This document shows positions 42,782 through 56,099 of a stretch of 64,000 bases of DNA, in pieces. Made by a program: the position numbers and the translations under genes. The DNA is from Escherichia coli (GTDB lineage: Bacteria > Pseudomonadota > Gammaproteobacteria > Enterobacterales > Enterobacteriaceae), in assembly GCF_050920415.1 (NCBI RefSeq), contig NZ_CP169309.1; one strand, written 5' to 3'. Below the pieces are notes generated by a model. It saw nothing but the letters and a program-made list of their open reading frames with translations. It ran no database searches and was not told where the DNA came from. Each line of letters opens with the position of its first letter. Position 1 is the first letter of the stretch.

Positions 42782-45376
42782 ATGCATCACTCTGGTTCTG
42801 TTTCTCTTTGTCGTTCCGCAATATCTGTTCTGGTGGCTACAGCGTTATATTCTCCCATAGCATTGGCATCAACTGTTGAGTATGGAACGACTGTTGATGG
42901 TGTTGTCCTGGAAAAAGATATCCAGCTGGTTTATGGGACCGCAAATAATACGAAAATCACTCCCAGCGGAGAACAGCATATAAAAGAATGTGGTGTAAGT
43001 AATAATGCTGAAATAAACGGAGGGTATCAGTACATTGAAGCATATGGCTCAGCAGAATACTCAGTATTAAATGATGGTTATCAAATTGTTCAATTGGGTG
43101 GTGCAGCAAACCAAACTACCATCAATAATGGTGTGTTACAGGTTTATGGAGCTGCTAATGAAGCCACTATTAAAGGCGGGCGCTTACTCGTTGAAACCGA
43201 AGGCATTGCCATCTTCGCCGTTATCGAAAAGGGAGGACTACTGGAGGTTAAAGATGGCGGATTGGCATTTGCGGTAGATCAAAAAGCAGGCGGTGCAATC
43301 AAAACAACCACGCGGGTTATGGAGGTATTCGGAACAAATCGTCTCGGTCAGTTTGATATCAAAGATGGGGTTGCTAACAATATGCTGTTGGAAAACGGCG
43401 GAAGTTTGCGGGTTGAAGAGAATGACTTCGCTTATAATACCACTGTGGATAGTGGTGGTTTACTGGAGGTTATGGATGGCGGGACTGCAACTGGCGTTGA
43501 CAAAAAAGCAGGCGGAAAATTAATTGTTTCAACGAATGCGCTGGAAGTGAGTGGTACAAACAGTAAAGGCCAATTTAGCATAAAAGATGGCGTGTCTAAA
43601 AATTATGAACTAGATGACGGTTCCGGGCTAATTGTTATGGAGGGCACTCAGGCAATTGACACTATCCTTGATGAGCATGCAACCATGCAATCGTTGGGAA
43701 GAGATACTGGTACGAGAGTGCAGGCACATGCAGTTTATGATCTTGGTCGGTCAGTGCAGAATGGAAGCATAAAATATTCCTCAAATGCTATATCTGAAAA
43801 TATGGTTATCGATAATGGTCGCGCTAATGTCTGGACTGGCACAATGGTTAACGTAACAGTCAGAGGAAATGAGGGCATTATTGATGCAATGGCGCTGGAA
43901 TTAAATTTTTATACACCGGCTACATTATTAGGTGACGTGGTGGTTTCTGATGGTGCATCTTTAAGAACGCATGGCGCAGTGGATACCAGTAAAGCAGATG
44001 TTTCTATCGAAGAGAGTTTTTGGGCTATTATTGCCGATATCAATAATATAAACCAAAACACCCGTCTCAATTTAGCAAACCTGGTGATGTCAGACGGAAC
44101 TGTCGTTATGATGGCTGAGCCAGTGACTCGTTCATCTGTGACGGCAAGTGCGGAAAATTTCACTACATTGACCACTAATACCCTGTCGGGAAACGGCAAT
44201 TTTTATATGCGCACCGATATGGCCAATCACCAGAGCGATCAGCTTAACGTCACCGATCAGGCAACAGGTAATTTCAAAATCTTCGTTACGGACACCGGTG
44301 CCAGCCCGGCAGCAGGAGATAGCCTTACACTGGTAACAACGGGCGGCGGTGATGCTGCATTTACCTTGGGCAATGCCGGAGGCGTTGTTGATATCGGTAC
44401 GTATGAATATATCTTGCAAGATAATGGCAACCATAGCTGGAGTCTGGCAGAGAATCGCACGCAAATAACTCCTTCAACCACTGATGTGTTGAATATGGCG
44501 GCAGCACAACCGCTGGTATTTGATGCAGAACTGGATACCGTACGTGAGCGTCTTGGTAGCGTAAAAGGCGTTAATTACGATACGGCGATGTGGAGTTCGG
44601 CAATTAACACCCGCAACAACGTAACCACTGATGCGGGAGCTGGCTTTGAGCAAACATTGACGGGGCTGACGCTCGGTATCGATAGCCGTTTCTCCCGTGA
44701 AGAAAGCAGCACAATTCGTGGCTTATTCTTTGGTTACTCTCATTCTGATATTGGTTTTGATCGCGGCGGTAAAGGCAATGTCGATAGCTATACCCTGGGG
44801 GCTTATGCCGGTTGGGAGCATCAGAACGGTGCCTATGTTGATGGGGTGGTGAAAGTTGACCGTTTTTCCAACACCATCCATGGCAAGATGAGTAATGGGG
44901 CAACAGCGTTTGGCGATTACAATAGTAACGGCGCGGGTGCTCATGTCGAGAGCGGGTTCCGTTGGGGGGAGGGGTTGTGGAATGTAAGGCCTTATCTGTC
45001 CTTTACCGGCTTTACCACTGATGGTCAGGACTATACGTTATCAAATGGTATGCGAGCGGATGTGGGAAATACCCGCATATTACGCGCTGAAGCGGGAACG
45101 GCGGTAAGCTATCACATGGACCTGCAAAACGGTACGACGCTGGAACCCTGGCTGAAAGCCGCCGTGCGTCAGGAATACGCCGATTCTAACCAGGTGAATG
45201 TTAATGACGACGGCAAATTTAATAATGACGTGGCTGGAACCCGTGGCGTTTATCAGGCTGGGATAAGGTCATCGTTTACCCCGACGTTAAGCGGTCATTT
45301 GTCAGTCAGCTATGGCAATGGCGCGGGGGTAGAATCACCGTGGAATACCCAGGCGGGTGTGGTCTGGACGTTCTGA
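42782..45376 (+). CDS. yejO: Autotransporter YejO, apparently intact (864 aa)
   Basis: 864-aa ORF with signal peptide, repetitive passenger region and C-terminal beta-barrel ending ...VVWTF. Confidence 0.8.
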   Translation: MHHSGSVSLCRSAISVLVATALYSPIALASTVEYGTTVDGVVLEKDIQLVYGTANNTKITPSGEQHIKECGVSNNAEINGGYQYIEAYGSAEYSVLNDGYQIVQLGGAANQTTINNGVLQVYGAANEATIKGGRLLVETEGIAIFAVIEKGGLLEVKDGGLAFAVDQKAGGAIKTTTRVMEVFGTNRLGQFDIKDGVANNMLLENGGSLRVEENDFAYNTTVDSGGLLEVMDGGTATGVDKKAGGKLIVSTNALEVSGTNSKGQFSIKDGVSKNYELDDGSGLIVMEGTQAIDTILDEHATMQSLGRDTGTRVQAHAVYDLGRSVQNGSIKYSSNAISENMVIDNGRANVWTGTMVNVTVRGNEGIIDAMALELNFYTPATLLGDVVVSDGASLRTHGAVDTSKADVSIEESFWAIIADINNINQNTRLNLANLVMSDGTVVMMAEPVTRSSVTASAENFTTLTTNTLSGNGNFYMRTDMANHQSDQLNVTDQATGNFKIFVTDTGASPAAGDSLTLVTTGGGDAAFTLGNAGGVVDIGTYEYILQDNGNHSWSLAENRTQITPSTTDVLNMAAAQPLVFDAELDTVRERLGSVKGVNYDTAMWSSAINTRNNVTTDAGAGFEQTLTGLTLGIDSRFSREESSTIRGLFFGYSHSDIGFDRGGKGNVDSYTLGAYAGWEHQNGAYVDGVVKVDRFSNTIHGKMSNGATAFGDYNSNGAGAHVESGFRWGEGLWNVRPYLSFTGFTTDGQDYTLSNGMRADVGNTRILRAEAGTAVSYHMDLQNGTTLEPWLKAAVRQEYADSNQVNVNDDGKFNNDVAGTRGVYQAGIRSSFTPTLSGHLSVSYGNGAGVESPWNTQAGVVWTF

Positions 45377-45440
45377 TAACAGAAAATAAACAGGCCGTAA
45401 TGTGTCGCGGTCTGTTTATCAAATTAATCGCAGATATAAA

Positions 45441-45470
45441 AAAAACCAACCGCAATAGGTTGGTTTTTCT
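45441..45470. terminator. Bidirectional terminator at the island/yejO junction
   Basis: aaaaaaccaaccgcaataggttggtttttct: hairpin with A/T runs on both sides. Confidence 0.55.
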
Positions 45471-45493
45471 TGGGATTTTTGGTCGCACGAGAG
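45471..45493. repeat. Distal att direct repeat of the proL island
   Basis: tgggatttttggtcgcacgagag resembles tgggcgatttggtcggcacgagag at the tRNA 3' end (56281..56304). Confidence 0.55.
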
Positions 45494-45660
45494 TAGTTTA
45501 ATTGAGTGTATAACTAAATGATTTTAAATAATATTCTTTATTCAACTTTTAAATCGTATAACCAAACGTATAACTAAAATAATTTGCTGAAAAAGTGTAC
45601 AATTTCAGCAATAATTGCCCTAGCGACTATCATCCTGCTCCCCGGATTTTTTCCGGTTAA

Positions 45661-45897
45661 ATGTTAATCAGGCTGCTGGGCTTTGCCTGTTCGGTAGGTG
45701 TAATGATTATCGTAATACTTTTCCCCCAATGGGGTAAAAGCATCAACCGTAACGGAAGTCGTTATGGTTGCCTTGATGATCTGCGTGGTCATTATGACCA
45801 TTCAGCCAATGACCTTAATCAGAGCTTTTCGCTAAAAATGACGTTGGCCACTCGTCCGAAAAGCACAAAATCCCATCGATTTTTAATTAACGGTTAA
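45661..45897 (+). CDS. Hypothetical small membrane protein (78 aa)
   Basis: ORF with hydrophobic N-terminal segment (LLGFACSVGVMIIVILF); no convincing RBS. Confidence 0.25.
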   Translation: MLIRLLGFACSVGVMIIVILFPQWGKSINRNGSRYGCLDDLRGHYDHSANDLNQSFSLKMTLATRPKSTKSHRFLING

Positions 45898-46035
45898 ACC
45901 GTCTTTTTGTCACGTCGTGTCACTGGTTGTCACTCTCCGTCACGATCTCCGATAGCCTGGCTGCAAATTAAACTACGAAAATTTCGTAGTTCTGACTTCT
46001 TTCAGATAGTCGGTTGCCTGGTTACACGAAAAAAA

Positions 46036-46407
46036 TTACTTCCTGCGTTTATCCCGCTTTGTATGTCCGTGCTGAATGCCCCGCAGTGGATCTTCTTTTT
46101 TCAGGTCGATCCCCATGTCCGTTAGTGTTTTTGTGGCGGCGGTTCTTATGGCACAAATCAGGTCTCTTTCCGGTTCCCGGGTTATGGTTGCCTTCCGGAT
46201 ACATGCCGTTCGTCGTTCCGTTACATACTGACGCGCTTCATCACTTGCCGCCTGTTTCAGTAACTCACCCCAGCGATTAGCCGCCCGTCGCCATAAACCT
46301 TTCGCTTCCAGTTCTTCCGCTTTGTCATCATGCACCATAAGCATAATCCCATTGATACCTGTTAAATCTGAATGGTTGGTTTCCGTTCTTTTGATAATTT
46401 CCCTCAT
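46036..46407 (-). CDS. Hypothetical protein, possibly PerC-family transcriptional activator-like
   Basis: 123-aa ORF with LEAKGLWRRAANRWGELL motif reminiscent of PerC-type activators; start may be an internal Met. Confidence 0.4.
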   Translation of the reverse strand: MREIIKRTETNHSDLTGINGIMLMVHDDKAEELEAKGLWRRAANRWGELLKQAASDEARQYVTERRTACIRKATITREPERDLICAIRTAATKTLTDMGIDLKKEDPLRGIQHGHTKRDKRRK

Positions 46408-46450
46408 AGCTTATTGTATGACAGTACTGTCCCACAATAAGGAATCACAC

Positions 46451-46750
46451 ATGAGAATGACCAGGCACAAAAAACAGATTCTTGAACTTTACAAACCTGA
46501 GTATCGCGATTGGGTGCGGGTGGAGGCCGGAGATCCGCCTTTTGATGTTCGTGGTGTGACAGTGCTGCTCTATGGTTCCGAATATCAGCGATATCACATA
46601 GAGGCAACCCGACGAACGTTAAACGCTATGGTAAATGATGGGATCCTGTACCGCGTGAAAGTGCGCGAACCCCGCTTTGATGTGCGTATCGGTAGCGATG
46701 GCGCTCACTGTACGGTAATCCGGTACGGGCTGGGTAAATCAGATGATTAA
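46451..46750 (+). CDS. Hypothetical protein (99 aa)
   Basis: Start chosen at ATG 46451 preceded by AAGGA RBS (ORF track extends upstream to 46322); no recognisable domain. Confidence 0.45.
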   Translation: MRMTRHKKQILELYKPEYRDWVRVEAGDPPFDVRGVTVLLYGSEYQRYHIEATRRTLNAMVNDGILYRVKVREPRFDVRIGSDGAHCTVIRYGLGKSDD

Positions 46751-46873
46751 ATCACCAGAATGTAAATTTACATTCTGCCAGCCACCAGCTACAGAACGCA
46801 AATTTGCACTTTGCTGAAATATTAACGGGTTAGGCCAGAGTGCAAATTTGCATTATGCTTTAACTTCAGCAAG

Positions 46874-47155
46874 TTACCGCCGTAACCGCTCCGGCTTCTT
46901 CCACTGGTACGTTATTTTGGCTTTTTCCCTGTACGTCTGTATCCGGCGACGGTAGGCCAGCATTTCAAGAACGCGGATCCGTATGTCGCGCATATCCGCA
47001 TCATTAAGCTGGATACCATCACGGTGCATCACCTCAGCAACCACACGAACATAATTTTCTGCGGTCACGCTGTCCGGCTGCGTGGCCTGTTCGTCAGCCT
47101 GCTGGTTGATTCCGGCGACGCGGCGGATTAATCGCAGTAGTTCGGTTTCTGTCAT
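46874..47155 (-). CDS. Hypothetical protein (93 aa)
   Basis: ORF just downstream of the capsid-gene terminator; no recognisable domain. Confidence 0.4.
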   Translation of the reverse strand: MTETELLRLIRRVAGINQQADEQATQPDSVTAENYVRVVAEVMHRDGIQLNDADMRDIRIRVLEMLAYRRRIQTYREKAKITYQWKKPERLRR

Positions 47156-47315
47156 TGTGCCCCCATCGCGCTGGTTAAGAAAACAAGCTCAGATTTTTTG
47201 TAAAGAATCTGTCACGCTAAAAGATGTCGAACAAAAAACAACCTTCTCCATCATCTTTTTTGCATCGATTACATTAAAAACAACAGGTTACATACATGAT
47301 GATGATGACGATAAA

Positions 47316-47412
47316 ATCACAAAAATGCGCTTTTTTCCGCGCCCGCCCGCCCCGTGTTCATACCCACCCCACCAGGAGGACCCGCAAAAAAGGCGGCTGG
47401 TGCCGCCTTGTT
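47316..47412 (-). repeat. Repeated non-coding element, copy A: terminator hairpin plus GC box
   Basis: Shares a ~38-bp near-identical core (aaaaatgcgc(t/c)tttttccgcgcccgcccgccccgtg) and similar downstream architecture with copy B. Confidence 0.6.
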
Positions 47413-47413
47413 G

Positions 47414-49303
47414 TCATAGTGAATCGGTACCGCCTGATTTGACCATACCGCGATAATCCAGAGCGGCCACACCAGCATCAATACGGACTTTCCAGGCCAC
47501 ACCGTCAACGATGAAACCTTCCTGCTGTTCAAGGTAAGGCTCGTCATTGCCATCAAGATAAGCCACCTCGATTGTGTCCGTTCCCTGTGCGGAAAGCATG
47601 TACCATTGTTTTTCGCTGATATCATCAAGGCGGGGATCGACGATAATATCCAGTAGTTTGTGATACGGGTTAAAGATCCCGCTGTTTTTATCTGCCCCGA
47701 AAGGTGCGGTTGAGTTAATCATCTGCAACGCGCGATCTTCCAGTGCTGCCGGAACTAAAAGGAATTTAGGCGCAATATTCAGCACTTCGCCATTTTTGTC
47801 CTTCTGTGTGCGCATCAGGTGACGTGCTGCACTAAGTCCCGGTGTTGTCAGTCCTGCTTCAATCAGGTTGCTGTGTTTTTTGTCAAACAGCGCTATTCCA
47901 TCAGAAAGTTTTACGTTGCCTGTAAGCACCAGATTAACCAGATTTCCCACCGTTCTTGATGCTGCACGGCCCATAGCCATTGGCACCGTTGATAACTGAT
48001 CAAGGTCATCATTGATTATCGCCTGGCGGGTAATGCTGAAAATATTCCCGTAAGTAGCCAGCGCGATGGGTTCACCGCGATCGCTGGTGGTGATGTATTT
48101 ATATTCTGCCCCTTCCGGCACTTTGTTTAACGTAGAGAAACCATTCAGACCAACGCGGCGGGCTTCACGAAAGTTTGAAAGGGAACCTTTTTTCGTCCAC
48201 TGGCGGAATGTTTCGCCGCTGTGCTCCCAGCCTGCAAGCACTGATTTTTCAGCACCACCAGCAAGGATATCGGTAAAATCGCTGCTGCTGTGGTTGAATG
48301 CCGCGTTTACTATCTGCGAGCGTGTTCCGTAGCTGCCCGTGCTTATACCACGATGGGTTAATGATGCCTGTGCCATATCGAAAAGGCTCATCATGGCGTA
48401 AGGATTACCGCGTTCGGCCCGTTCGTGACCAAGACGCGCATTAAGCCCCTGGCGCATTGCATCGCCGGTTATGTTGCCGTTATCCGTGTACGCGTAGTAA
48501 AGATTTGCGGGGGTGGTTTTATTTGTTGGCGTTGATTCTTTACCCATAGCGAGTAAAAGGCGTTCGCGTGCATTCTCAACGCTACATTCTGAATCAGCAA
48601 GACAACTTATAGCCAGGTCGTTATATCTTCCGTTGAACGTGCCAAACAATTCACGGATGCCGTTAAGTCGTTCCTGTTCGCCACTGCCAGTTTTCTGGCT
48701 GATCATGCTTTTAATTTTTTCCGGCATATTTGAAAAATCTCCGATTCGTTTTGATTCAATTCGGGCCATTGCTGTAATCGCGGGTATAACCTCATCTGCG
48801 AAGCCGTTAGCCTTACACTCATTGCCATCCATCCAGGTTTCCGCCTCCATCATGGCGGTGATTTCCTGTTTGCTCCTGCCCGTTCTTCCGGCGTAGGTTT
48901 CAGCCATCGTGTCGCCCAGCTTGTCCATCAGGTCAGCAAAGCGGCGAACGTCGCCCGACACTCCGGCAGTAACACCACGGGGGGCATGTATCATCATCAT
49001 TGCGTTTTCAGGCATAACGATGTGATCGCCACACATGGCAATAAACGAGGCCATAGAAGCCGCCATGCCTTCAATGTGTACAATTTTCTTTGCCGGATGA
49101 TTTTTCAGGGCGTTATAGATAGCCAGCCCTTCAAAGATGTCGCCACCAGGTGAATGGATGCGAAGATGGATTTCAGACGCATTACCACACGCGTTGATCT
49201 CGTCAGTAAGTGCCGATGCTTTTACACCGTACCCGCCGATCTCGTCATAAATGCGCACATAGACAACATCTGCCATAGCCTTAATGGAAAACCATGTTTT
49301 CAT
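47414..49303 (-). CDS. Prohead protease (ClpP/S14-like) fused to a capsid-like C-terminal domain
   Basis: 629-aa ORF: N-terminal ~180 aa has ClpP-like motifs (GMAASMAS, MMIHAP); C-terminal ~350 aa reads as an HK97-fold major capsid protein, assigned by impression only. Confidence 0.75.
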   Translation of the reverse strand: MKTWFSIKAMADVVYVRIYDEIGGYGVKASALTDEINACGNASEIHLRIHSPGGDIFEGLAIYNALKNHPAKKIVHIEGMAASMASFIAMCGDHIVMPENAMMMIHAPRGVTAGVSGDVRRFADLMDKLGDTMAETYAGRTGRSKQEITAMMEAETWMDGNECKANGFADEVIPAITAMARIESKRIGDFSNMPEKIKSMISQKTGSGEQERLNGIRELFGTFNGRYNDLAISCLADSECSVENARERLLLAMGKESTPTNKTTPANLYYAYTDNGNITGDAMRQGLNARLGHERAERGNPYAMMSLFDMAQASLTHRGISTGSYGTRSQIVNAAFNHSSSDFTDILAGGAEKSVLAGWEHSGETFRQWTKKGSLSNFREARRVGLNGFSTLNKVPEGAEYKYITTSDRGEPIALATYGNIFSITRQAIINDDLDQLSTVPMAMGRAASRTVGNLVNLVLTGNVKLSDGIALFDKKHSNLIEAGLTTPGLSAARHLMRTQKDKNGEVLNIAPKFLLVPAALEDRALQMINSTAPFGADKNSGIFNPYHKLLDIIVDPRLDDISEKQWYMLSAQGTDTIEVAYLDGNDEPYLEQQEGFIVDGVAWKVRIDAGVAALDYRGMVKSGGTDSL

Positions 49304-49494
49304 AGCCAGGCTCCTAACGTTGCCCTGTACCAGTATTCAACCGCGCTGCGTGTGATTTGTCCTTTCGTGGGTACCGGCATACCCGGGTGATTGTCTTTGA
49401 TGAACTGCTGATAGCGTTCGATCTTCTCCATAGTTCCGGCGTCTATGTGTACCGTGGCACTTTTATCCGGCTTTCTGGTGTTGTTCTCTGGCAT
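49300..49494 (-). CDS. Hypothetical small protein coupled to the protease-capsid gene
   Basis: ORF 49300..49527; internal ATG at 49494 has a strong GGAGG RBS; stop overlaps capsid ATG (ATGA). Confidence 0.45.
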   Translation of the reverse strand: MPENNTRKPDKSATVHIDAGTMEKIERYQQFIKDNHPGMPVPTKGQITRSAVEYWYRATLGAWL

Positions 49495-49854
49495 AAATCC
49501 GCCTCCGTTTTGATTAACGGGCATCATTATTGATCGATAAAAGTAATAGATAAATCATTTTCTACCTGAAAATTAGATTATATTTTTTCTGATTATTCTC
49601 AGAGAGGCAAAGCCATTGACGCATTTTTGCTATTGAAGCAATATTAAGACTCGTCATCCTGGCGATAAAAACTCCTTTGTCGTGTAAAAGCGCCTCCGGT
49701 AACAGCAATCGAGGGCGCTTTTTTTTGCGCCTGTTTTTTTGTAAATGTTTTCGGGAACGCTCCAGTGATGAACAAAAAACAACCTGATTCGACACTAAAA
49801 ATTTTTATTCCTCAATATATCAATAACTTATAGTGGTGGTGATGGTGCCATAAA

Positions 49855-49952
49855 AATCAAAAAATGCGCCTTTTTCCGCGCCCGCCCGCCCCGTGGACAG
49901 GCCCACCAAGCCAGGAGTACCTACAAAAAAGCCGGATTGCTCCGGCTGTGTG
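49855..49952 (-). repeat. Repeated non-coding element, copy B
   Basis: See copy A; hairpin gccggattgctccggc plus GC box. Confidence 0.6.
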
Positions 49953-49965
49953 CTCACTTCTTCGG

Positions 49966-50217
49966 TTATTCTCCAGCGCTTTTAACGTTGATGGTTGTAA
50001 CCTGTTCCGCTTCGGCAATCTCCCATTCTGTCAGCGTGGCAAAGTTTGCCGCCGCTGTGGTCATGAATGCGCTTATCAGGTCGGGATGTGCTTTCGCGTA
50101 TCCTTCCCCCGTGTTGCGGTCGATGATTTTTATCGCCACTCTCAGCCAGTGCTCTGTAAGGTCAATGGCGCGGTTATGCTGCTTCTTCTGATTATTAAGT
50201 TTTCCTGATGTGCGCAT
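49966..50217 (-). CDS. Hypothetical protein (83 aa)
   Basis: ORF between the iteron array and repeat copy B; G-rich RBS-like sequence upstream. Confidence 0.4.
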   Translation of the reverse strand: MRTSGKLNNQKKQHNRAIDLTEHWLRVAIKIIDRNTGEGYAKAHPDLISAFMTTAAANFATLTEWEIAEAEQVTTINVKSAGE

Positions 50218-50249
50218 TTTTATTTTTACCCCCTCGTTTAAAAAGTTTT

Positions 50250-50500
50250 GAGTTGTGCCTCCCCTTGTCTACCTTATCTACCTTACTGGCCACCATGCCA
50301 GTAATGGCGCGGCTTTCAGTGGGGTAGAGTGCTTTTATCCACTATCTACCCCGTATCTACCTCCCTGTCTGATTCAGGTAAAATCAGGTAGAGAGGGTAG
50401 ATAGTAGGTAGACAGTAAAAAAAGGCTGTCTACCCAAGTTAATGTACTGAATTAAATGTATTTTTCTTTACTCAGGTAGACAGGGTAGACAGCCATTGCA
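50250..50500. repeat. Iteron array, putative replication origin
   Basis: At least 11 copies of GGTAGA/TCTACC in both orientations within ~250 bp, just 3' of the replication gene. Confidence 0.55.
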
Positions 50501-50505
50501 ACAAA

Positions 50506-52254
50506 TTATAAAAACGCGTCGCAATCGTCTGTTGTTATTGCGTTAGTCTGCGTTACTCCTTTAACTTTCCGCGTAATATATTCATGTCCGTAAACTTTCG
50601 CGGCTGGCTTCATAGCCTTGCCAAAGTCATTTACGTTTAGCGGTTTGCTCCTGCCTGCGTACGCCATAAACGCCAGATAGACGCGGTAAAGGCTGTTTCT
50701 GGTCGTGTACTTCACTGAATCGCCACCGCCGCCCATCATCAGGCCGCGTGCTTCCTCCAGAAAATTCAGGAACTGGCAAAACTCAATAACCGGATCCGTC
50801 TGTTGCTTTATTGCCAGTGCTTCATCACCGTCACGCTGTTCAATGAGTAAAGCCCGTGCCTTTTCAGGGTCGGCAAAGTTCGCCAGCAAGCGGCGGATAA
50901 TGACAGGGATTTCAGCCGCGATCTTTTCCGGTAGCTCCCTGTCTTTTTCTGCCTCGCTTACGATGTTATCGAACCGGAATATCACCCGACGACGTGCCAC
51001 ACCTCCGGCCCGTTCGGTGAATATCATCGGATTGTTATTGGTTGCCAGCACCACCGCCCTGATTACCGCCGTAAAACGCTTTTCATATTTCGGGTTAATT
51101 TCCACGGGGTCGCCGCCCGTGATTTTCTTGATGCCCGTTCCTTCGCCTGTATATTTCTGCTGGTCTGCCAGGACGATAAGACGACTCCCGACAACCTGCG
51201 CACGCCCACCAGCATCATCAAGCGATGTCATTTCAGCGCTTACCGTGTTTTGTTTCCCTGCCAGAAGGCTGGCTATGTGTGTGAATGTACTTTTACCGCT
51301 CCCGCCGTCTCCGGTGGCCTCAATAAACATCTGCCAGTCGTACCGGTTCGCCATAATCATGTACAGCGCGGCACATATACGCATCATCTTGCTCGGGTCT
51401 TTTCCGGCTGCGTGCTCAAGCCATTTATGAAAGTTTGGCGCGTTATCGCGGATGTTCTCCCCGGGTGCTGGTGGCGTGTACTCAATGCCGTTGTGCGTGG
51501 TGATCCAGTTCTCCGGCGTGTGCGGGGAAAATTCCCCCGTTTTCAGGTCAAGCGCACCATTGGCGAACGGCAGCAAATCGCCGGACGGCTCGCCCATTGG
51601 TTCGGCAATAACTTTTAACGCTTCCACGGCGTTATTGATTACGCGCTTGCTGAAAGTGGCCCTGTGCTCTGAATAGATAGCCACCATTTCGCGGCTCAGC
51701 TCCATTGTGCTGACCGGACACCATACCCCGCCGCGCCATACGTGAACGATTTCACTTTCAGGATGCACACAAACGCCATCAAAGCGCTCGGCAAGCAGCT
51801 GCGCGCGCTCACTGTCTGCCATTTGTGCCAGTTGCGTATTTTTCTGCTCCGGCATGGTAAGCCCTGCGGCAATATTTTCACGCTCAGCATTCAGATAGCG
51901 CCGCCAGTTTTCACACTTCTGGACGTGCATTCCTTCGGGGTAAAAATTTGCGTCCTGAATATCTGCCGCCGCCAGCTTCTGACCAATCTTTTTGGTCTCC
52001 ACCAAATCCAGTTCTCCGGCCTGGTACAGCCTTACGCGCTTTTTCCCATCCGGAACAATTTTCAGTGCATCAAGTTCGGCAAGCTGATTTGGCCCAAGCC
52101 ACACAGGCGGCACATTATCGCCGGATGCGGGGCCATCCTGCTCCTGCCATTGTTTCGCGTGCGACCAGGCATCACTACCCGCGAAAATAATTACCTCTGT
52201 GTCTTTGTGTTTTATTCCGCGTGGCTGTTTTTTTACGTTCGGTGCCAGTTTCAT
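50506..52254 (-). CDS. Replication protein: NTPase/helicase-like with Walker A motif (primase-helicase-like)
   Basis: 582-aa ORF with Walker A GDGGSGKST and a putative Walker B (LIVLAD); SF3/D5/P4-alpha-type assignment is by impression. Confidence 0.75.
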   Translation of the reverse strand: MKLAPNVKKQPRGIKHKDTEVIIFAGSDAWSHAKQWQEQDGPASGDNVPPVWLGPNQLAELDALKIVPDGKKRVRLYQAGELDLVETKKIGQKLAAADIQDANFYPEGMHVQKCENWRRYLNAERENIAAGLTMPEQKNTQLAQMADSERAQLLAERFDGVCVHPESEIVHVWRGGVWCPVSTMELSREMVAIYSEHRATFSKRVINNAVEALKVIAEPMGEPSGDLLPFANGALDLKTGEFSPHTPENWITTHNGIEYTPPAPGENIRDNAPNFHKWLEHAAGKDPSKMMRICAALYMIMANRYDWQMFIEATGDGGSGKSTFTHIASLLAGKQNTVSAEMTSLDDAGGRAQVVGSRLIVLADQQKYTGEGTGIKKITGGDPVEINPKYEKRFTAVIRAVVLATNNNPMIFTERAGGVARRRVIFRFDNIVSEAEKDRELPEKIAAEIPVIIRRLLANFADPEKARALLIEQRDGDEALAIKQQTDPVIEFCQFLNFLEEARGLMMGGGGDSVKYTTRNSLYRVYLAFMAYAGRSKPLNVNDFGKAMKPAAKVYGHEYITRKVKGVTQTNAITTDDCDAFL

Positions 52255-52550
52255 TTTTTACCCCTGAATACGTTAAGCATCTTTTTTATTTCCTGAATAT
52301 TGGCGCGTGCTTTCTCCCTGCTGGTTGGTTTACTGCGGGGCGCTGCCTGTACCAGAGAAAAATCACGCCGAAACTGATAAACAGGCATCACGCAATCATA
52401 TTCGTAGCCTTCACGACGGTAGGTGATGCGCCGTTCTGCCACGCCTTTAATCGTTACCATGCCGCCATATTTATCGCGGTAAATATCGCCGCGCGTAAAT
52501 TTAGGGTGAGTGTTGCCACTAGCAGTTAAGCCAGAAATTTTCTTTTTCAT
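52251..52550 (-). CDS. Hypothetical protein (99 aa), coupled to the replication gene
   Basis: Stop overlaps replication-gene start; basic protein. Confidence 0.45.
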   Translation of the reverse strand: MKKKISGLTASGNTHPKFTRGDIYRDKYGGMVTIKGVAERRITYRREGYEYDCVMPVYQFRRDFSLVQAAPRSKPTSREKARANIQEIKKMLNVFRGKK

Positions 52551-52566
52551 GGTTTTTATTCCGCGT

Positions 52567-52782
52567 TTATTTTTTATCGTGAATTTCGATCGCTTTATTT
52601 AATTCGGTGATTACCGTATCGAGTAATGAAATAAACGCACCAGCAAGATTAGATTCACGTTCACCTTCCGGCGCATCACTTAAACCATCAAGCCAGATAA
52701 GCAATATTTGCCGCAAGCATTCACTGTTAGTCAGTGCGTTTTCTGCATGGCTCATTAATTTAAAATAACGGTCATCATGCAT
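52567..52782 (-). CDS. Hypothetical protein (~71 aa)
   Basis: ORF 52567..52827; internal ATG at 52782 has AAGGGG RBS and sits 2 nt after the upstream gene's stop. Confidence 0.4.
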   Translation of the reverse strand: MHDDRYFKLMSHAENALTNSECLRQILLIWLDGLSDAPEGERESNLAGAFISLLDTVITELNKAIEIHDKK

Positions 52783-53011
52783 GGTGCGCCCCTTGAATAT
52801 CTGCGGTAAGAATTTTGCCTGCCTCATTCAGCGCCATATCAGCACTAAGTTGCATAACCGCCAGCGAATGAGGAACGAAAGCCCCTGCATATTCTGTTTC
52901 ACTGGTGGCGTGCTTATGCGCCATGTCAGCAATAACAGAAATATCAATAAGCGCATCCATCAGCGTTTTGATGGCTTCGGCGGCTGCGTCCGGACGGGGG
53001 TTATTGCACAT
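52775..53011 (-). CDS. Hypothetical protein (78 aa), first gene of the replication operon
   Basis: Strong GGAGG RBS 6-7 nt upstream of ATG; faces the divergent operator region. Confidence 0.45.
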   Translation of the reverse strand: MCNNPRPDAAAEAIKTLMDALIDISVIADMAHKHATSETEYAGAFVPHSLAVMQLSADMALNEAGKILTADIQGAHHA

Positions 53012-53289
53012 GGCGCACCTCCTGACGAATACGGGCGGCGAATACCATCACGCAGCCAGCCGGGGATTGCTGGCGGGCTTCCTGTTCGCTGGTGGCCTCG
53101 ATGGTAATCACGCGCGGTTGTGCCGTGCTCAGGGCGATAAAACGCCAGATGTATTTATTCAGGTTGTGCGAATCCCGCCCTTGCGGGTGTGTGGTATGAT
53201 TTCTCATAGCTGCCTCGATACTCTTTCTATCGTTGGTGGTTAGACGCCCTGCATGTGTGCCACCACTGCGGGGCGTTGCGTTTTTTGAT

Positions 53290-53347
53290 GCACACGTGTT
53301 AAGGTGTACACCTACAAAGCAAAAACATAACGCCATAGGTGTACACA
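53290..53347. promoter_or_regulatory. Operator cluster in the divergent control region
   Basis: Palindromes ACACGTGT (53293), GGTGTACACC (53303..53312) and AGGTGTACAC (53338..53346, overlapping the RBS of the plus-strand gene). Confidence 0.5.
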
Positions 53348-53541
53348 TGTCAACAGTTATTAAGCGCGATAAAAAACAAAAAGGCACAGGAAAGACCCCA
53401 CCGTTCCATATGCGTATAGTTCCTGAATTGAAGGAGCAGTTTGATAACGAAGCCAGTAACGATGGAGTAAGTCTTGCCAACTGGCTTAAAGAGTTGGGGC
53501 GCGCCGAACTAAAGCGACGCGGCATTGAACCTAAAGGCTGA
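53347..53541 (+). CDS. Small DNA-binding regulator, putative ribbon-helix-helix (64 aa)
   Basis: ATG with AGGTG RBS; HMRIVPELKEQF strand-like then helical DGVSLANWLKELGRAEL suggests RHH (assigned by impression); divergent from the replication operon. Confidence 0.45.
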   Translation: MSTVIKRDKKQKGTGKTPPFHMRIVPELKEQFDNEASNDGVSLANWLKELGRAELKRRGIEPKG

Positions 53542-53544
53542 TGT

Positions 53545-53664
53545 ATGACCGATAACAAACTTTCTCTAACAGAGAATAAACCATCAGGCTTCTTACCAAG
53601 AAAAATCCTTGATGAGATCAAACGCCGCCAGCGTAAAAAATCCAAAGGAGCAGACACGGAATAG
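53545..53664 (+). CDS. Hypothetical basic peptide (39 aa)
   Basis: Short ORF 3 nt after the upstream stop; below the ORF-track length cutoff. Confidence 0.2.
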   Translation: MTDNKLSLTENKPSGFLPRKILDEIKRRQRKKSKGADTE

Positions 53665-53667
53665 CTT

Positions 53668-53832
53668 ATGCAACAAATACCATACTGGCTTGGCTCTCTG
53701 TTTGTATTTGCATTTCTCATGAAATATTGCATTAGCAATGAACTTGTCGGTAATGAAAGTGCATGCGCGAGCGCTGAAAAAAATATTCCACTTCTCGTAT
53801 ATGAAAACGAAAGCCCTGTGAACCGCAATTGA
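53668..53832 (+). CDS. Hypothetical small membrane peptide (54 aa)
   Basis: ATG 3 nt after the upstream stop; hydrophobic N-terminus (YWLGSLFVFAFLM) then polar tail. Confidence 0.25.
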   Translation: MQQIPYWLGSLFVFAFLMKYCISNELVGNESACASAEKNIPLLVYENESPVNRN

Positions 53833-54108
53833 GCGAAATTTAATGAATTCACTCTTTGCCCACCAGCCGCAAATGTGGCATTGTTGGCGATGCTCATGCG
53901 TTGGGGATAACGTGTAGCTTGTGTCGAAGGGCCATCGTGACAGGTGGCCTTTTCTTTACCTGTTATCTGGCAATTGTGGCGCTTCGTCACACGGTTGATA
54001 TAATTCCCCTGCACTGATCCATTTTTTTCGCAGCAGGTTAATTGTTCGCAAGGGCGCTCCGGCAACGGGGCGCTTTTTGTTATGTTCATCACGTTACGCC
54101 TCACACCA

Positions 54109-54315
54109 TTACGCAGCCGTTCCGCGCGCTTCTTCCTCGCGCTCTTTCAGCCAGGCCAGCACTTCATCTTCATACCAGCCAACACGACGCAGACCGATTT
54201 TGAAGCCTTTCGGAAATTTTCCGGCGTTGATCATGTCCTGTAGCGAACTGTCTGCCTTGATGCGCAGAATATTTTTTACTTCCTGACGGGTAAGAATTTT
54301 TCTGATTGTTTCCAC
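54109..54315 (-). CDS. alpA: AlpA-family transcriptional regulator/excisionase-like protein (GTG start)
   Basis: 68-aa ORF with MerR-like HTH (LTRQEVKNILRIKADSSLQDMINAGKFPKGFKIG...); typical neighbour of P4-type integrases. Confidence 0.8.
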   Translation of the reverse strand: METIRKILTRQEVKNILRIKADSSLQDMINAGKFPKGFKIGLRRVGWYEDEVLAWLKEREEEARGTAA

Positions 54316-54384
54316 TATGTTTTACCTCGTTAATCCGGCGTATTCCGGTGATAAATACGGTAAAACAGGGCAGGGCGGGAAAAA

Positions 54385-54420
54385 CAGTACCCACCGTTTT
54401 AAAACGGTACCCACTGTTTT
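54385..54420. promoter_or_regulatory. Putative operator upstream of alpA
   Basis: acaGTACCCACcgtttt aaaacgGTACCCACtgtttt: motif repeated 20 bp apart around a central palindrome. Confidence 0.4.
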
Positions 54421-54485
54421 TTATCTTATTGATTACGCTTTTCTTTCTGCAAAAAAATAGCGACCGCAAGGGGCCGCTATTGTGA

Positions 54486-54728
54486 TTACCGTTTCCACTT
54501 CTTAGGTCGCCCACCGCATTTAAGGCTGGTGGGCCTCAGCACCTTGTCGATGCTTTCAGCCAGATTTTTCGATGCGCCACGCGAGCGCAAAAAACTGACT
54601 ACCTCGTGTTTTGTGGGGGCAGTTGATTTGTCTTCCGGATCGTACGTTGACCAGAATTCACGATTTGCCATTAAGGCCAACTGAAGGCCTTCACCATAGG
54701 CAGGGGATACCTTTTCATTGAAAAACAC
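54486..54728 (-). CDS. Hypothetical protein (80 aa) between integrase and alpA
   Basis: ORF followed by a hairpin/T-run near 54455..54480. Confidence 0.3.
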   Translation of the reverse strand: MFFNEKVSPAYGEGLQLALMANREFWSTYDPEDKSTAPTKHEVVSFLRSRGASKNLAESIDKVLRPTSLKCGGRPKKWKR

Positions 54729-54829
54729 TCGGATAACTCCTTGAATTTCAAGAGTCGGGTCTCTCTGTATATGGTGATTATACGATGGTTTAGCATGGTT
54801 TGCATCGCTTTTACTGGTTTTTTGTACAG

Positions 54830-56071
54830 TTATACGGCACGGATACCCCTTTTACCACTGGCTATGGTCACTCCGGTTGCTGCGGCCTCTACAAATTCCC
54901 CCCACCAGCGCATAAGCACCACGCGCTTTTCCAGGTAGTTACTTCGGTTATATGCTCGCCTTACCTCGTTCGTGTCCACGTGTGCGAGTGCGGCCTCGAT
55001 TACGTCCGGCTCGAATCCTTCCTCGTTCGCTGCTGTGCTGAATATGGCGCGTAATCCATGAGACACCAGCACGCCAGCGAATCCCATTCGCCGCAATGCT
55101 GCGTTGGCGGTCTGGCTGTTCATAGGCTGCCGTGGGTCTTTCAGGCTAGGGAAAACGTGCTCGCGGTGGTGGCTGATTGGCTTCATGGCCTCCAGTACCG
55201 CCATAGCCTGACTACAAAGCGGGATAACGTGATCACGCCGCATCTTCATGCGTCCGGCGGGGATCGTCCATTGTTGCGCGTCCATGTCGATTTCTTCCCA
55301 GCGTGCTGACGATGCTTCAACCGGACGGGTTACAGTCAGTAGCTGCCATTCAATCAGTAATCTGGTCTGCCGTTCTGTTGCTGATACGGATAAAGCCTGC
55401 ATAAGCTCCGGCAACTGTTCGGGGCGGATTGTTGGCATATGTTTTTTTACAGGGGAGGGGAACGCCTTACGCACATTCATAGCCGGATTGGCATCAATCA
55501 GCCCACTGTTGGCGGCGTAATCCATTACCTCATTAACGCGCTGTAAAACCCGCTTGAGTGTTTCCAGGTTGCCGCGCTCCTTGATGGGTGTAAGCACCTC
55601 AACGAACCTTCGGGCAGTGAGGGTATCTATTGGCGTGTTGCCGATGAACGGGAATACATATTTATCCAGCGAACGCCAGATGTCTTTAATCGTGTTGGGG
55701 GCCAGATTCTGGCTGATTTTCACCTGGTACCATGCCGCCGCCACATTTTCGAACGTGTTCCCTTGTCTTCGGGCCTCTGCCTCTCGTTTTTTCTTCTCAT
55801 GGTCCTGCGGGTCAGTTCCGGCACTGATTAACGTCCTGTACTCGCTACGGCGTTTTCTGGCATCAGCCAGGGAAACATCTTCAAGAGATCCAAAACTCAG
55901 CAATATTCTTTTTTTGTCCGATGGTCGGTAGTAGGAAAATCGCCAGAGTTTTGATCCGGACGGTTTTACCAGGAGAAAAAGCCCACCGCCGTCCTGTAGG
56001 GTGTACTCCTTTTGCGCTGGTCTGGCTGCTTTGATCTGCACTGTGGTTAATGGGGGTGTTTTTCTCGCCAT
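54830..56071 (-). CDS. int: Tyrosine site-specific integrase (P4-type)
   Basis: ORF 54830..56089; start placed at MARKTPPLTT; N-terminal arm-binding-like domain and catalytic HGLR...LAH...Y. Confidence 0.9.
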   Translation of the reverse strand: MARKTPPLTTVQIKAARPAQKEYTLQDGGGLFLLVKPSGSKLWRFSYYRPSDKKRILLSFGSLEDVSLADARKRRSEYRTLISAGTDPQDHEKKKREAEARRQGNTFENVAAAWYQVKISQNLAPNTIKDIWRSLDKYVFPFIGNTPIDTLTARRFVEVLTPIKERGNLETLKRVLQRVNEVMDYAANSGLIDANPAMNVRKAFPSPVKKHMPTIRPEQLPELMQALSVSATERQTRLLIEWQLLTVTRPVEASSARWEEIDMDAQQWTIPAGRMKMRRDHVIPLCSQAMAVLEAMKPISHHREHVFPSLKDPRQPMNSQTANAALRRMGFAGVLVSHGLRAIFSTAANEEGFEPDVIEAALAHVDTNEVRRAYNRSNYLEKRVVLMRWWGEFVEAAATGVTIASGKRGIRAV

Positions 56072-56099
56072 ATGTCTATGATTCCACACGAAAAAACAG

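Follow-up and report, generated by a model that had tools for sequence, protein, structure and literature searches.

A replicase-coupled RgdR gene and two variable small genes in a putative phage-inducible chromosomal island of Escherichia coli

What are three small genes doing directly in front of a replicase gene? The question is raised by a 64,000-nucleotide stretch of Escherichia coli DNA (RefSeq assembly GCF_050920415.1, contig NZ_CP169309.1; called the window below), in which three small open reading frames (ORFs), here named ORF78, ORF71 and ORF99 after the lengths of their products in amino acids, were picked out in a preliminary description. We find that ORF99 can be assigned as an orthologue of the regulator RgdR, and that in related loci RgdR is invariably coupled to the start of a replicase gene. 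ORF78 and ORF71 behave as a variable cassette. We consider it fairly probable that the three genes form the middle of an early operon on the replication side of a phage-inducible chromosomal island (PICI) of the EcCI type, in which RgdR would be an accessory factor and ORF78 and ORF71 would bind other proteins.

An operon-like unit in front of the replicase

The ORFs form an operon-like unit, the parts of which are as follows.

53324..53353, minus strand: sigma-70-like promoter, TTGACA-18 nt-TATGTT, with 10 of 12 positions matching (a consensus match only)
53302-53311 and 53337-53346, no strand assigned: two copies of AGGTGTACAC, operator-like and 35 bp apart, on either side of the -10 hexamer
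53001..53207, minus strand: first gene of the unit, for a basic Icd-like protein of 68 aa (NCBIfam NF033153, 1.5e-19)
52775..53011, minus strand: ORF78, acidic, optional cassette gene (phrog_5146 at 1e-37)
52567..52782, minus strand: ORF71, acidic, family F1 (phrog_2196 at 1.3e-22)
52251..52550, minus strand: ORF99, basic, assigned as an RgdR orthologue (DUF4222) from Pfam and orthology
50506..52254, minus strand: replicase, 582 aa, with an N-terminal domain of about 135 aa, D5_N, DUF5906 (in NCBIfam, the P4-family primase C-terminal region) and a Pox_D5 C-terminal domain

All three ORFs are present on the minus strand at the positions given in the preliminary description, which also placed them correctly between an operator-like region and a replication gene; the element that holds them is a phage satellite. 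The Icd-like gene overlaps the ORF78 start with its last 11 nt, 8 nt are common to ORF78 and ORF71, and the stop of ORF99 overlaps the replicase ATG by 4 nt (ATGA). The tight coupling first described is borne out by these overlaps; a 2-nt gap that formed part of it is wrong, as ORF71 and ORF99 lie 16 nt apart. Because the Icd-like gene overlaps the start of ORF78, the unit has four small genes and not three. Their co-transcription, also proposed earlier, agrees with their common orientation, with the single promoter-like site, which is the only one found on the minus strand in 49800-54900, and with the finding of no minus-strand terminator-like site between this promoter and position 49947. 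With stops and starts that overlap or lie close together, the small proteins and the replicase are probably coupled in their translation.

The -35 hexamer of the promoter overlaps the ATG of a divergent gene for a ribbon-helix-helix (RHH)-like protein. Exact GGTGTACAC sites occur only twice in the window, both at 53302-53346. Each includes the palindrome GTGTACAC, and the region 53302-53353 looks like a compact switch region.

The Icd-like gene is flagged as 'partial, missing N-terminus' by the NCBI annotation pipeline (PGAP). Its frame is open upstream, for 367 codons from a GTG (53001-54104, minus strand), running antisense across the RHH gene, and this long frame appears to be spurious. The 68-aa product started from ATG aligns with a 66-aa protein of strain CFT073 with 97% identity over the first 64 residues. 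An antisense RNA of the C4/CI type, as found beside the Icd-like gene in P1 and P4, was looked for with Rfam in 44000-57000, and the scan gave only the tRNA and noise.

The three ORFs are real genes under purifying selection. The record of E. coli OkiPb01679 is 100% identical to the window sequence, and PGAP calls the same three coding sequences in it. Across related loci, the ratio of non-synonymous to synonymous polymorphism (pN/pS) in the annotated frame is 0.31 for ORF78, 0.41 and 0.31 for the two large allele groups of the ORF71 family, and 0.33 for ORF99, and it is about 0.8-2.2 in both other frames. The window's own ORF71 allele entered this test with two distinct DNA sequences, which give no meaningful frame control. 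Homologues number 209 for ORF78 and 377 for ORF99, nearly all of them in Escherichia and Shigella; the window's ORF71 allele is rarer (8 clusters). A strong Shine-Dalgarno sequence, AGGAGG, precedes ORF78, and AAGGGG precedes the 71-aa start of ORF71. An alternative ORF71 of 86 aa starting at 52827 was rejected, as it has no Shine-Dalgarno sequence and conflicts with the N-termini of homologues.

In the other loci carrying the window's ORF71 allele (13-14) the product has 75 aa, ending in ...HDKKINAE, and the gap to rgdR is 5 nt. In the window (52551-52575) one A is missing from an A-run and an early TAA follows, so that ORF71 loses its last 4 residues and the gap before rgdR becomes 16 nt. 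This truncation is one of the few points that would favour one or more of the ORFs being chance frames or decayed pseudogenes, together with the 'partial' flag on the Icd-like gene and the rarity of the exact three-allele combination (80% or more of the region is covered in 24 of the 5426 complete E. coli genomes). Such an explanation is highly improbable, given the frame-specific purifying selection, the good Shine-Dalgarno sequences of ORF78 and ORF71, the conserved lengths, the hundreds of homologues and the strong PHROG and Pfam matches.

RgdR and the replicase

The preliminary description saw no recognisable domain in any of the three proteins. This does not hold: ORF78 and ORF71 match PHROG families of unknown function, and ORF99 matches the Pfam family DUF4222 (PF13973) over residues 16-68 with 85.6 bits (cut-off 27; E 1.6e-24). 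Over 99 of 99 residues and with no gaps, ORF99 shows 86% identity to ECs1581, the RgdR of Sakai Sp7/OI-51, and 77% to C1493 of CFT073. It keeps RGD at 20-22, K35 and R61, and residues 67-99 are the same as in ECs1581; at A10, K27 and R45 it is like C1493 and ED1a and unlike ECs1581. The RgdR of enterohaemorrhagic E. coli (EHEC) O157:H7, carried by O-island 51 (OI-51)/CP-933C/EcCIEDL933, a capsid-forming PICI (cf-PICI), also has 99 aa and occupies the same replicase-overlapping slot. On these alignments ORF99 is an RgdR orthologue.

ECs1581 activates LEE1, in the enterocyte effacement locus (LEE), and type III secretion, is a repressor of motility, and binds DNA non-specifically (Flockhart et al., PMC3378721). 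Residue 20 and its neighbours modulate RgdR activity, for which K35 is also among the important residues (PMC3378721). Across the DUF4222 family only xGD is conserved, PGD being its commonest form, so that the RGD motif is lineage-specific.

AlphaFold2 was used to predict the structure of RgdR from a 50-sequence alignment, and residues 21-70 have a pLDDT >90. In the model, five strands and a short helix form an SH3/Tudor-like barrel, followed by a basic C-terminal helix (78-96) and preceded by a disordered, basic N-terminus. Searched against viral predicted structures, it matched only uncharacterised and DUF1653-like small proteins. Bacterial Tudor/KOW-like domains that contact RNA polymerase, namely the UvrD/PcrA C-terminal domain, the CarD RID and the Spt5/NusG KOW, are candidates for a comparable fold; the TraI and eukaryotic Tudor domains may be named alongside the predicted fold. 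The fold, an isoelectric point of 10.4 and the published non-specific DNA binding would fit a small adaptor associated with nucleic acid or polymerase, although the fold alone is no proof of this.

The genomic position of RgdR is striking. We examined 77 IMG/VR loci having a close RgdR homologue with an Icd-like gene upstream (80 were fetched), to which the islands of the window, Sakai and CFT073 were added. In all 77, RgdR is 99 residues long and the rgdR stop overlaps an ATG belonging to the gene that follows, as ATGA. The products of that next gene have 582/584, 466-469 or 710-714 aa, and their RefSeq labels vary (primase, RepA helicase, DUF927, P4-family primase). Their C-terminal parts are unrelated (median identity 21%), while the N-terminal 135 or so residues are common to all (median 66%). 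This N-terminal domain also accompanies DUF4222 in distant satellites, at 44-47% identity, and one DUF4222 representative is fused to a primase zinc ribbon. RgdR is thus invariably coupled to the start of the replicase in related loci.

Six more distant DUF4222 representatives (29-46% identical) were also examined. Four of these share 4 nt with the gene that follows. For three of the four, this gene encodes a replicase of the DUF927 or D5_N type, and the island carries int and AlpA/HTH_17; for the fourth, the gene is cut off and has no identity assigned. In a fifth the overlap is 8 nt, with a gene of 230 aa that likewise has none. The sixth, of 79 aa (locus L097, 4001-5079), belongs to the early-right operon of a lambdoid prophage (CI-like, Cro, YdaT and further genes), where it stands directly before a Phage_ASH/pRha gene and not a replicase. 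It is an exception to the replicase coupling.

It is worth adding that the window replicase is itself chimeric. Its N-terminal domain corresponds to phrog_2850, has no Pfam family, and is common to otherwise unrelated replicases of the D5_N/SF3, DUF927 and RepA types (loci L002, L003, L086, L089 and L099). In the window this domain is closer to that of Sakai (77%), and the remainder of the protein is 99% identical to that of CFT073. Although called a primase, the 582-aa protein matches none of the catalytic primase domains in Pfam (Toprim, zinc-ribbon and PriCT-type hits are all absent).

One explanation of this arrangement is that RgdR, and possibly ORF71, are dedicated replication accessories, which bind the origin or else load or modulate the replicase through the shared N-terminal domain. 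We regard this as a tentative possibility. The fixed ATGA overlap speaks for it, as do the 4-nt overlaps of the four distant loci (three with an identifiable replicase), the N-terminal domain shared by replicases that are otherwise unrelated, the fact that RgdR and this domain in the window are both closer to their Sakai counterparts, and the DNA binding of RgdR (PMC3378721). Several findings tell the other way. A pri-ori clone of a related island replicates alone; a satellite deposited as 'phage vB_KppS-Ant' has the shared replicase N-terminal domain and no DUF4222; one DUF4222 gene, as noted, does not precede a replicase; and there is no covariation beyond linkage. No similarity to known loaders or initiators was found either: none of the three proteins has a Pfam or NCBIfam match to helicase loaders, initiators or single-stranded-DNA-binding (SSB) proteins, and sequence and profile searches of the PDB gave nothing with E <0.1. 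Homology to known replication accessory proteins, which the preliminary description had named as the result that would count against its own suggestion, was not seen in these databases. Taken together, the pri-ori replicon, the satellite without DUF4222 and the linkage-only covariation weaken a strict replication role for RgdR.

The published effects of RgdR allow another explanation, in which the genes are cargo of the 'moron' type, selected for their effect on the host, with RgdR regulating the LEE and motility for the bacterium and its neighbours as passengers. Deletion of rgdR or of OI-51 does lower type III secretion, adherence and ruminant colonisation (PMC3378721), and LEE regulators of the PerC family are likewise found on PICIs, the window island among them. 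We find this quite unlikely as the reason for the presence of the genes. RgdR homologues are found in 1261 of 5426 complete E. coli genomes, about a quarter, and they occur in LEE-negative uropathogenic, commensal and Nissle strains (PMC3378721). Distant DUF4222 relatives also occur in int-AlpA islands that were recovered from metagenome contigs, the RGD motif is restricted to one lineage of a family with the consensus xGD, and the slot of rgdR is fixed, translationally coupled and inside a life-cycle operon, not at the accessory ends of the island.

ORF78 and ORF71, a variable cassette

The ORFs between the Icd-like gene and RgdR were clustered in the 77 loci. The ORF71 family, which includes ECs1580 and a 77-aa CFT073 gene, is directly upstream of RgdR in 72 of the 77, usually with a gap of 5 nt. 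It comprises about four allele groups, only 17-40% identical to one another, and each group is paired with several replicase types. The Spearman correlation of the family is 0.08-0.20 with the replicase and 0.35 with RgdR. The window's allele group has 14 further loci, at 93-100% identity; the allele adjoins RgdR upstream in all 14, and the DUF4222 genes that follow are only 44-76% identical to that of the window.

The ORF78 family, an optional cassette, is found in about two thirds of the loci, and its slot is also filled by other cassette families. Its members share a conserved N-terminus, MCNxxxPDAAA..LMxALIDI, and have at least four central/C-terminal allele types. In several genomes (proteins P0086, P0091 and P0106) the frame of ORF78 continues into the next cassette gene (MRDDRFNSLKQEF...), and the fused products, of 126-154 aa, match the 154-position phrog_2512 profile; these fusions may be indel artefacts at overlapping junctions, or they may be genuine. 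The small ORF families were considered as diverged paralogues of each other, and this was rejected: hhalign gave less than 2% among F0a, F0b, F1, F2 and F6, and only F4 and F5 are related. The clear conclusion is that ORF78 and ORF71 behave as a variable cassette, and their allelic hypervariability is compatible with a role in interaction with a helper or host.

Both proteins are acidic, with isoelectric points of 5.0 (ORF78) and 4.8 (ORF71). AlphaFold2 was run on a chimera of the two joined by a linker, and predicts two long helices for each in a helix-loop-helix, at low confidence (pLDDT 60.9). Neither protein matches any Pfam family above threshold. The profile and structure searches suggested in the preliminary description identified ORF99 as DUF4222/RgdR, and for ORF78 and ORF71 they were uninformative.

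The preliminary description suggested derepression or anti-restriction as functions, and the position of the genes does recall satellite P4. Its left operon (cI region, epsilon, ORF151, ORF106, alpha) is, like that of the window, an early satellite operon with small genes before a primase-helicase. The C-terminal part of the window replicase is 40% identical to P4 alpha, and the AlpA of the window is distantly related to P4 Vis. There are also differences, in that P4 derepresses its helper and PICIs are induced by theirs, and in that Rfam detected no C4/CI-type RNA of the P4 kind in the window island. None of the three proteins matches the Derepression family PF25738, to which P4 epsilon itself scores 9.2e-51. 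ORF78 and ORF71 gave no significant BLASTP hit to P4 epsilon, ORF151 or ORF106, and hhalign probabilities were 1% or less; for RgdR no homology to these three was found. P4 ORF151 was considered as a cryptic DUF4222 protein (BLASTP E 0.028) and rejected, as it has no Pfam match and hhalign gave 6.7%. The PADLOC defence models have no match to the small proteins, and ORF78 and ORF71 stay below threshold for every Pfam family, those for anti-restriction included. The proposed functions thus have no support from homology to the P4 proteins, the PADLOC models or Pfam families.

It could still be that ORF78 and ORF71 are effectors directed at the helper or at defence and made early, such as epsilon-like derepressors, helper-interference proteins or anti-restriction proteins. 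They are small and acidic and their position is analogous to that of epsilon; their divergent alleles are reshuffled independently of replicase type, as expected of specificity determinants; and they are almost absent from true phage genomes. In 50,697 phage genomes tblastn found no match to ORF78 and one to ORF71, and this one is in the cf-PICI deposited as 'phage vB_KppS-Ant', where the ORF71 homologue is directly before the replicase, with no DUF4222 gene. We nevertheless think an effector role unlikely. Besides the absence of any epsilon/PF25738, ORF151, ORF106, PADLOC or Pfam match, the pN/pS of 0.3-0.4 indicates purifying and not diversifying selection within alleles, and the PICI interference genes known so far are found 3' of the replicase. 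Gram-negative PICIs, moreover, are switched on by the helper through AlpA and respond to helper induction, not the reverse (PMC6092414), so that helper derepression in the style of P4 is not expected; on this point the earlier suggestion misfits PICI biology.

The island and the place of the three genes in it

The unit lies within an island whose remaining features are these.

45555..56170, about 10.6 kb, no strand assigned: the whole island, from its att-like direct repeats and flanking core genes
54830..56089, minus strand: tyrosine integrase, adjoining tRNA-Pro (56293-56366)
54109..54315, minus strand: AlpA-family helix-turn-helix regulator (PF05930, 33.3 bits, cut-off 21)
53347..53541, plus strand: Arc/RHH-like small gene, 64 aa, divergent, facing the operon promoter (weak match, 2.8e-5, to an Arc-like repressor PHROG)
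50268..50489, no strand assigned: putative origin, with 11 TCTACC iterons in both orientations flanking an AT-rich stretch
47414-49303, minus strand: ClpP-like prohead protease/major capsid fusion gene
46036-46338, minus strand: PerC-family regulator

The island is delimited by att-like direct repeats (45555-45590 and 56135-56170), which are 83% identical, 10,580 bp apart, and of sequence CGTATAAC[C/T]AAACGTATAACTAAAA. It has tRNA-Pro/yejM on one side and yejO/narP on the other. The copy on the tRNA side is about 120 bp from the 3' end of tRNA-Pro, and not within it. From the tRNA-Pro end the gene order is integrase, AlpA, RHH-like gene, operon, iterons, two small genes, capsid fusion gene and PerC-family regulator, and all the listed genes except the RHH-like gene are on the minus strand. 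In related islands the position of the RHH gene is taken by a gene of the YlcI/YnfO family. The putative origin is directly 3' of the replicase gene, and 11 of the 30 TCTACC hexamers of the window cluster there.

These features are those of a PICI. An integrase gene lies at one end of an element with a specific att site and a size within about 10-15 kb; AlpA is downstream of the integrase and transcription is largely unidirectional, on the minus strand from int to the capsid fusion gene; and pri/rep is followed by an origin with two sets of iterons around an AT-rich region, which matches the origin layout described for Gram-negative PICIs (PMC6092414). As judged from this architecture, int-alpA-pri-ori, the island is an EcCI-type PICI.

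The closest described relative is EcCICFT073. Its Icd-like protein is 97% and its replicase 91% identical to that of the window, and its layout is alike: int, alpA, an opposite-strand small gene, icd-like, small ORFs, DUF4222, pri and an iteron origin. There are two small genes between icd-like and rgdR in the window and four in CFT073, and identity to the CFT073 counterparts is only 39% for ORF78 and 37% for ORF71. Unlike EcCICFT073, the window island is shorter (10.6 kb) and has a ClpP-protease/capsid fusion gene; and unlike the islands of CFT073, Sakai Sp7 and E. coli 85.0412, it has no annotated SSB gene.

Three further observations concern the other end of the island. The ClpP-like protease/capsid fusion gene occurs with no portal or terminase gene. 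The PerC homologues of other PICIs are activators or repressors of the LEE. A 98-nt direct repeat (47311-47408 and 49850-49947, 79% identical) has its copies just 3' of the capsid fusion gene and of an 83-aa ORF, both of which are on the minus strand; both copies end in a GC-rich hairpin, and that at 49850-49947 scored as terminator-like, the other being outside the scan.

In the operon proposed here, a promoter with operator-like repeats would be followed by icd-like, orf78, orf71, rgdR, the replicase and the iteron origin. By analogy with EcCICFT073, where the helper phage induces AlpA and AlpA in turn activates the genes downstream, AlpA would turn the unit on upon induction of a helper phage; that AlpA is an activator of PICI genes comes from published work (PMC6092414). 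Because rgdR overlaps the replicase start codon in every related satellite examined, the most likely native job of RgdR would be that of an accessory, binding DNA or contacting RNA polymerase, in early expression or replication of the satellite, and its effects on host virulence genes would be cross-talk. ORF78 and ORF71 may be acidic two-helix hairpins that bind other proteins, and would be neither DNA-binding proteins nor enzymes, a reading that draws on the low-confidence model.

Four points weigh against this proposal. AlpA control and helper induction are transferred by analogy from EcCICFT073 and EcCIEDL933, for which helper-dependent induction, replication and high-frequency transfer have been shown (PMC6092414; bioRxiv 10.1101/2022.09.08.507074). 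A cloned pri-ori segment of EcCICFT073 maintains a plasmid and is an autonomous replicon (PMC6092414), so RgdR is probably not essential for replication, although the text is silent on whether the clone held rgdR. Covariation of ORF71 with RgdR or the replicase is weak (0.08-0.37) and falls with physical distance, which indicates linkage only and gives no signal of a specific partnership. Finally, Foldseek with the ORF78-ORF71 model returned only designed or ferritin-like four-helix bundles, with E >0.01.

A bolder version of the proposal would make RgdR a universal, replicase-coupled, Tudor-like accessory factor of AlpA-type satellites, which contacts RNA polymerase or counters nucleoid silencing on satellite DNA, for example, with its effects on the LEE and motility as by-products, and would make the ORF71-family hairpin a specificity module directed at the helper or host. 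We consider this somewhat unlikely.

The unit is an ordinary early operon of a known satellite type, comprising one characterised regulator and two existing families of unknown function, and nothing in it is categorically new. It is modestly interesting for the universal coupling of RgdR/DUF4222 to a satellite replicase and for the Tudor-like fold. In most citations RgdR figures as a regulator of type III secretion in EHEC that is carried by a prophage. Its gene proves to be a fixed part of a PICI replication operon, with a coupling that spans unrelated replicase types and distant islands (29-46% identical), and this reframes what the protein probably does. The two hairpin proteins mark a compact variable cassette region, and are reasonable candidates for helper-satellite contacts of Gram-negative PICIs.

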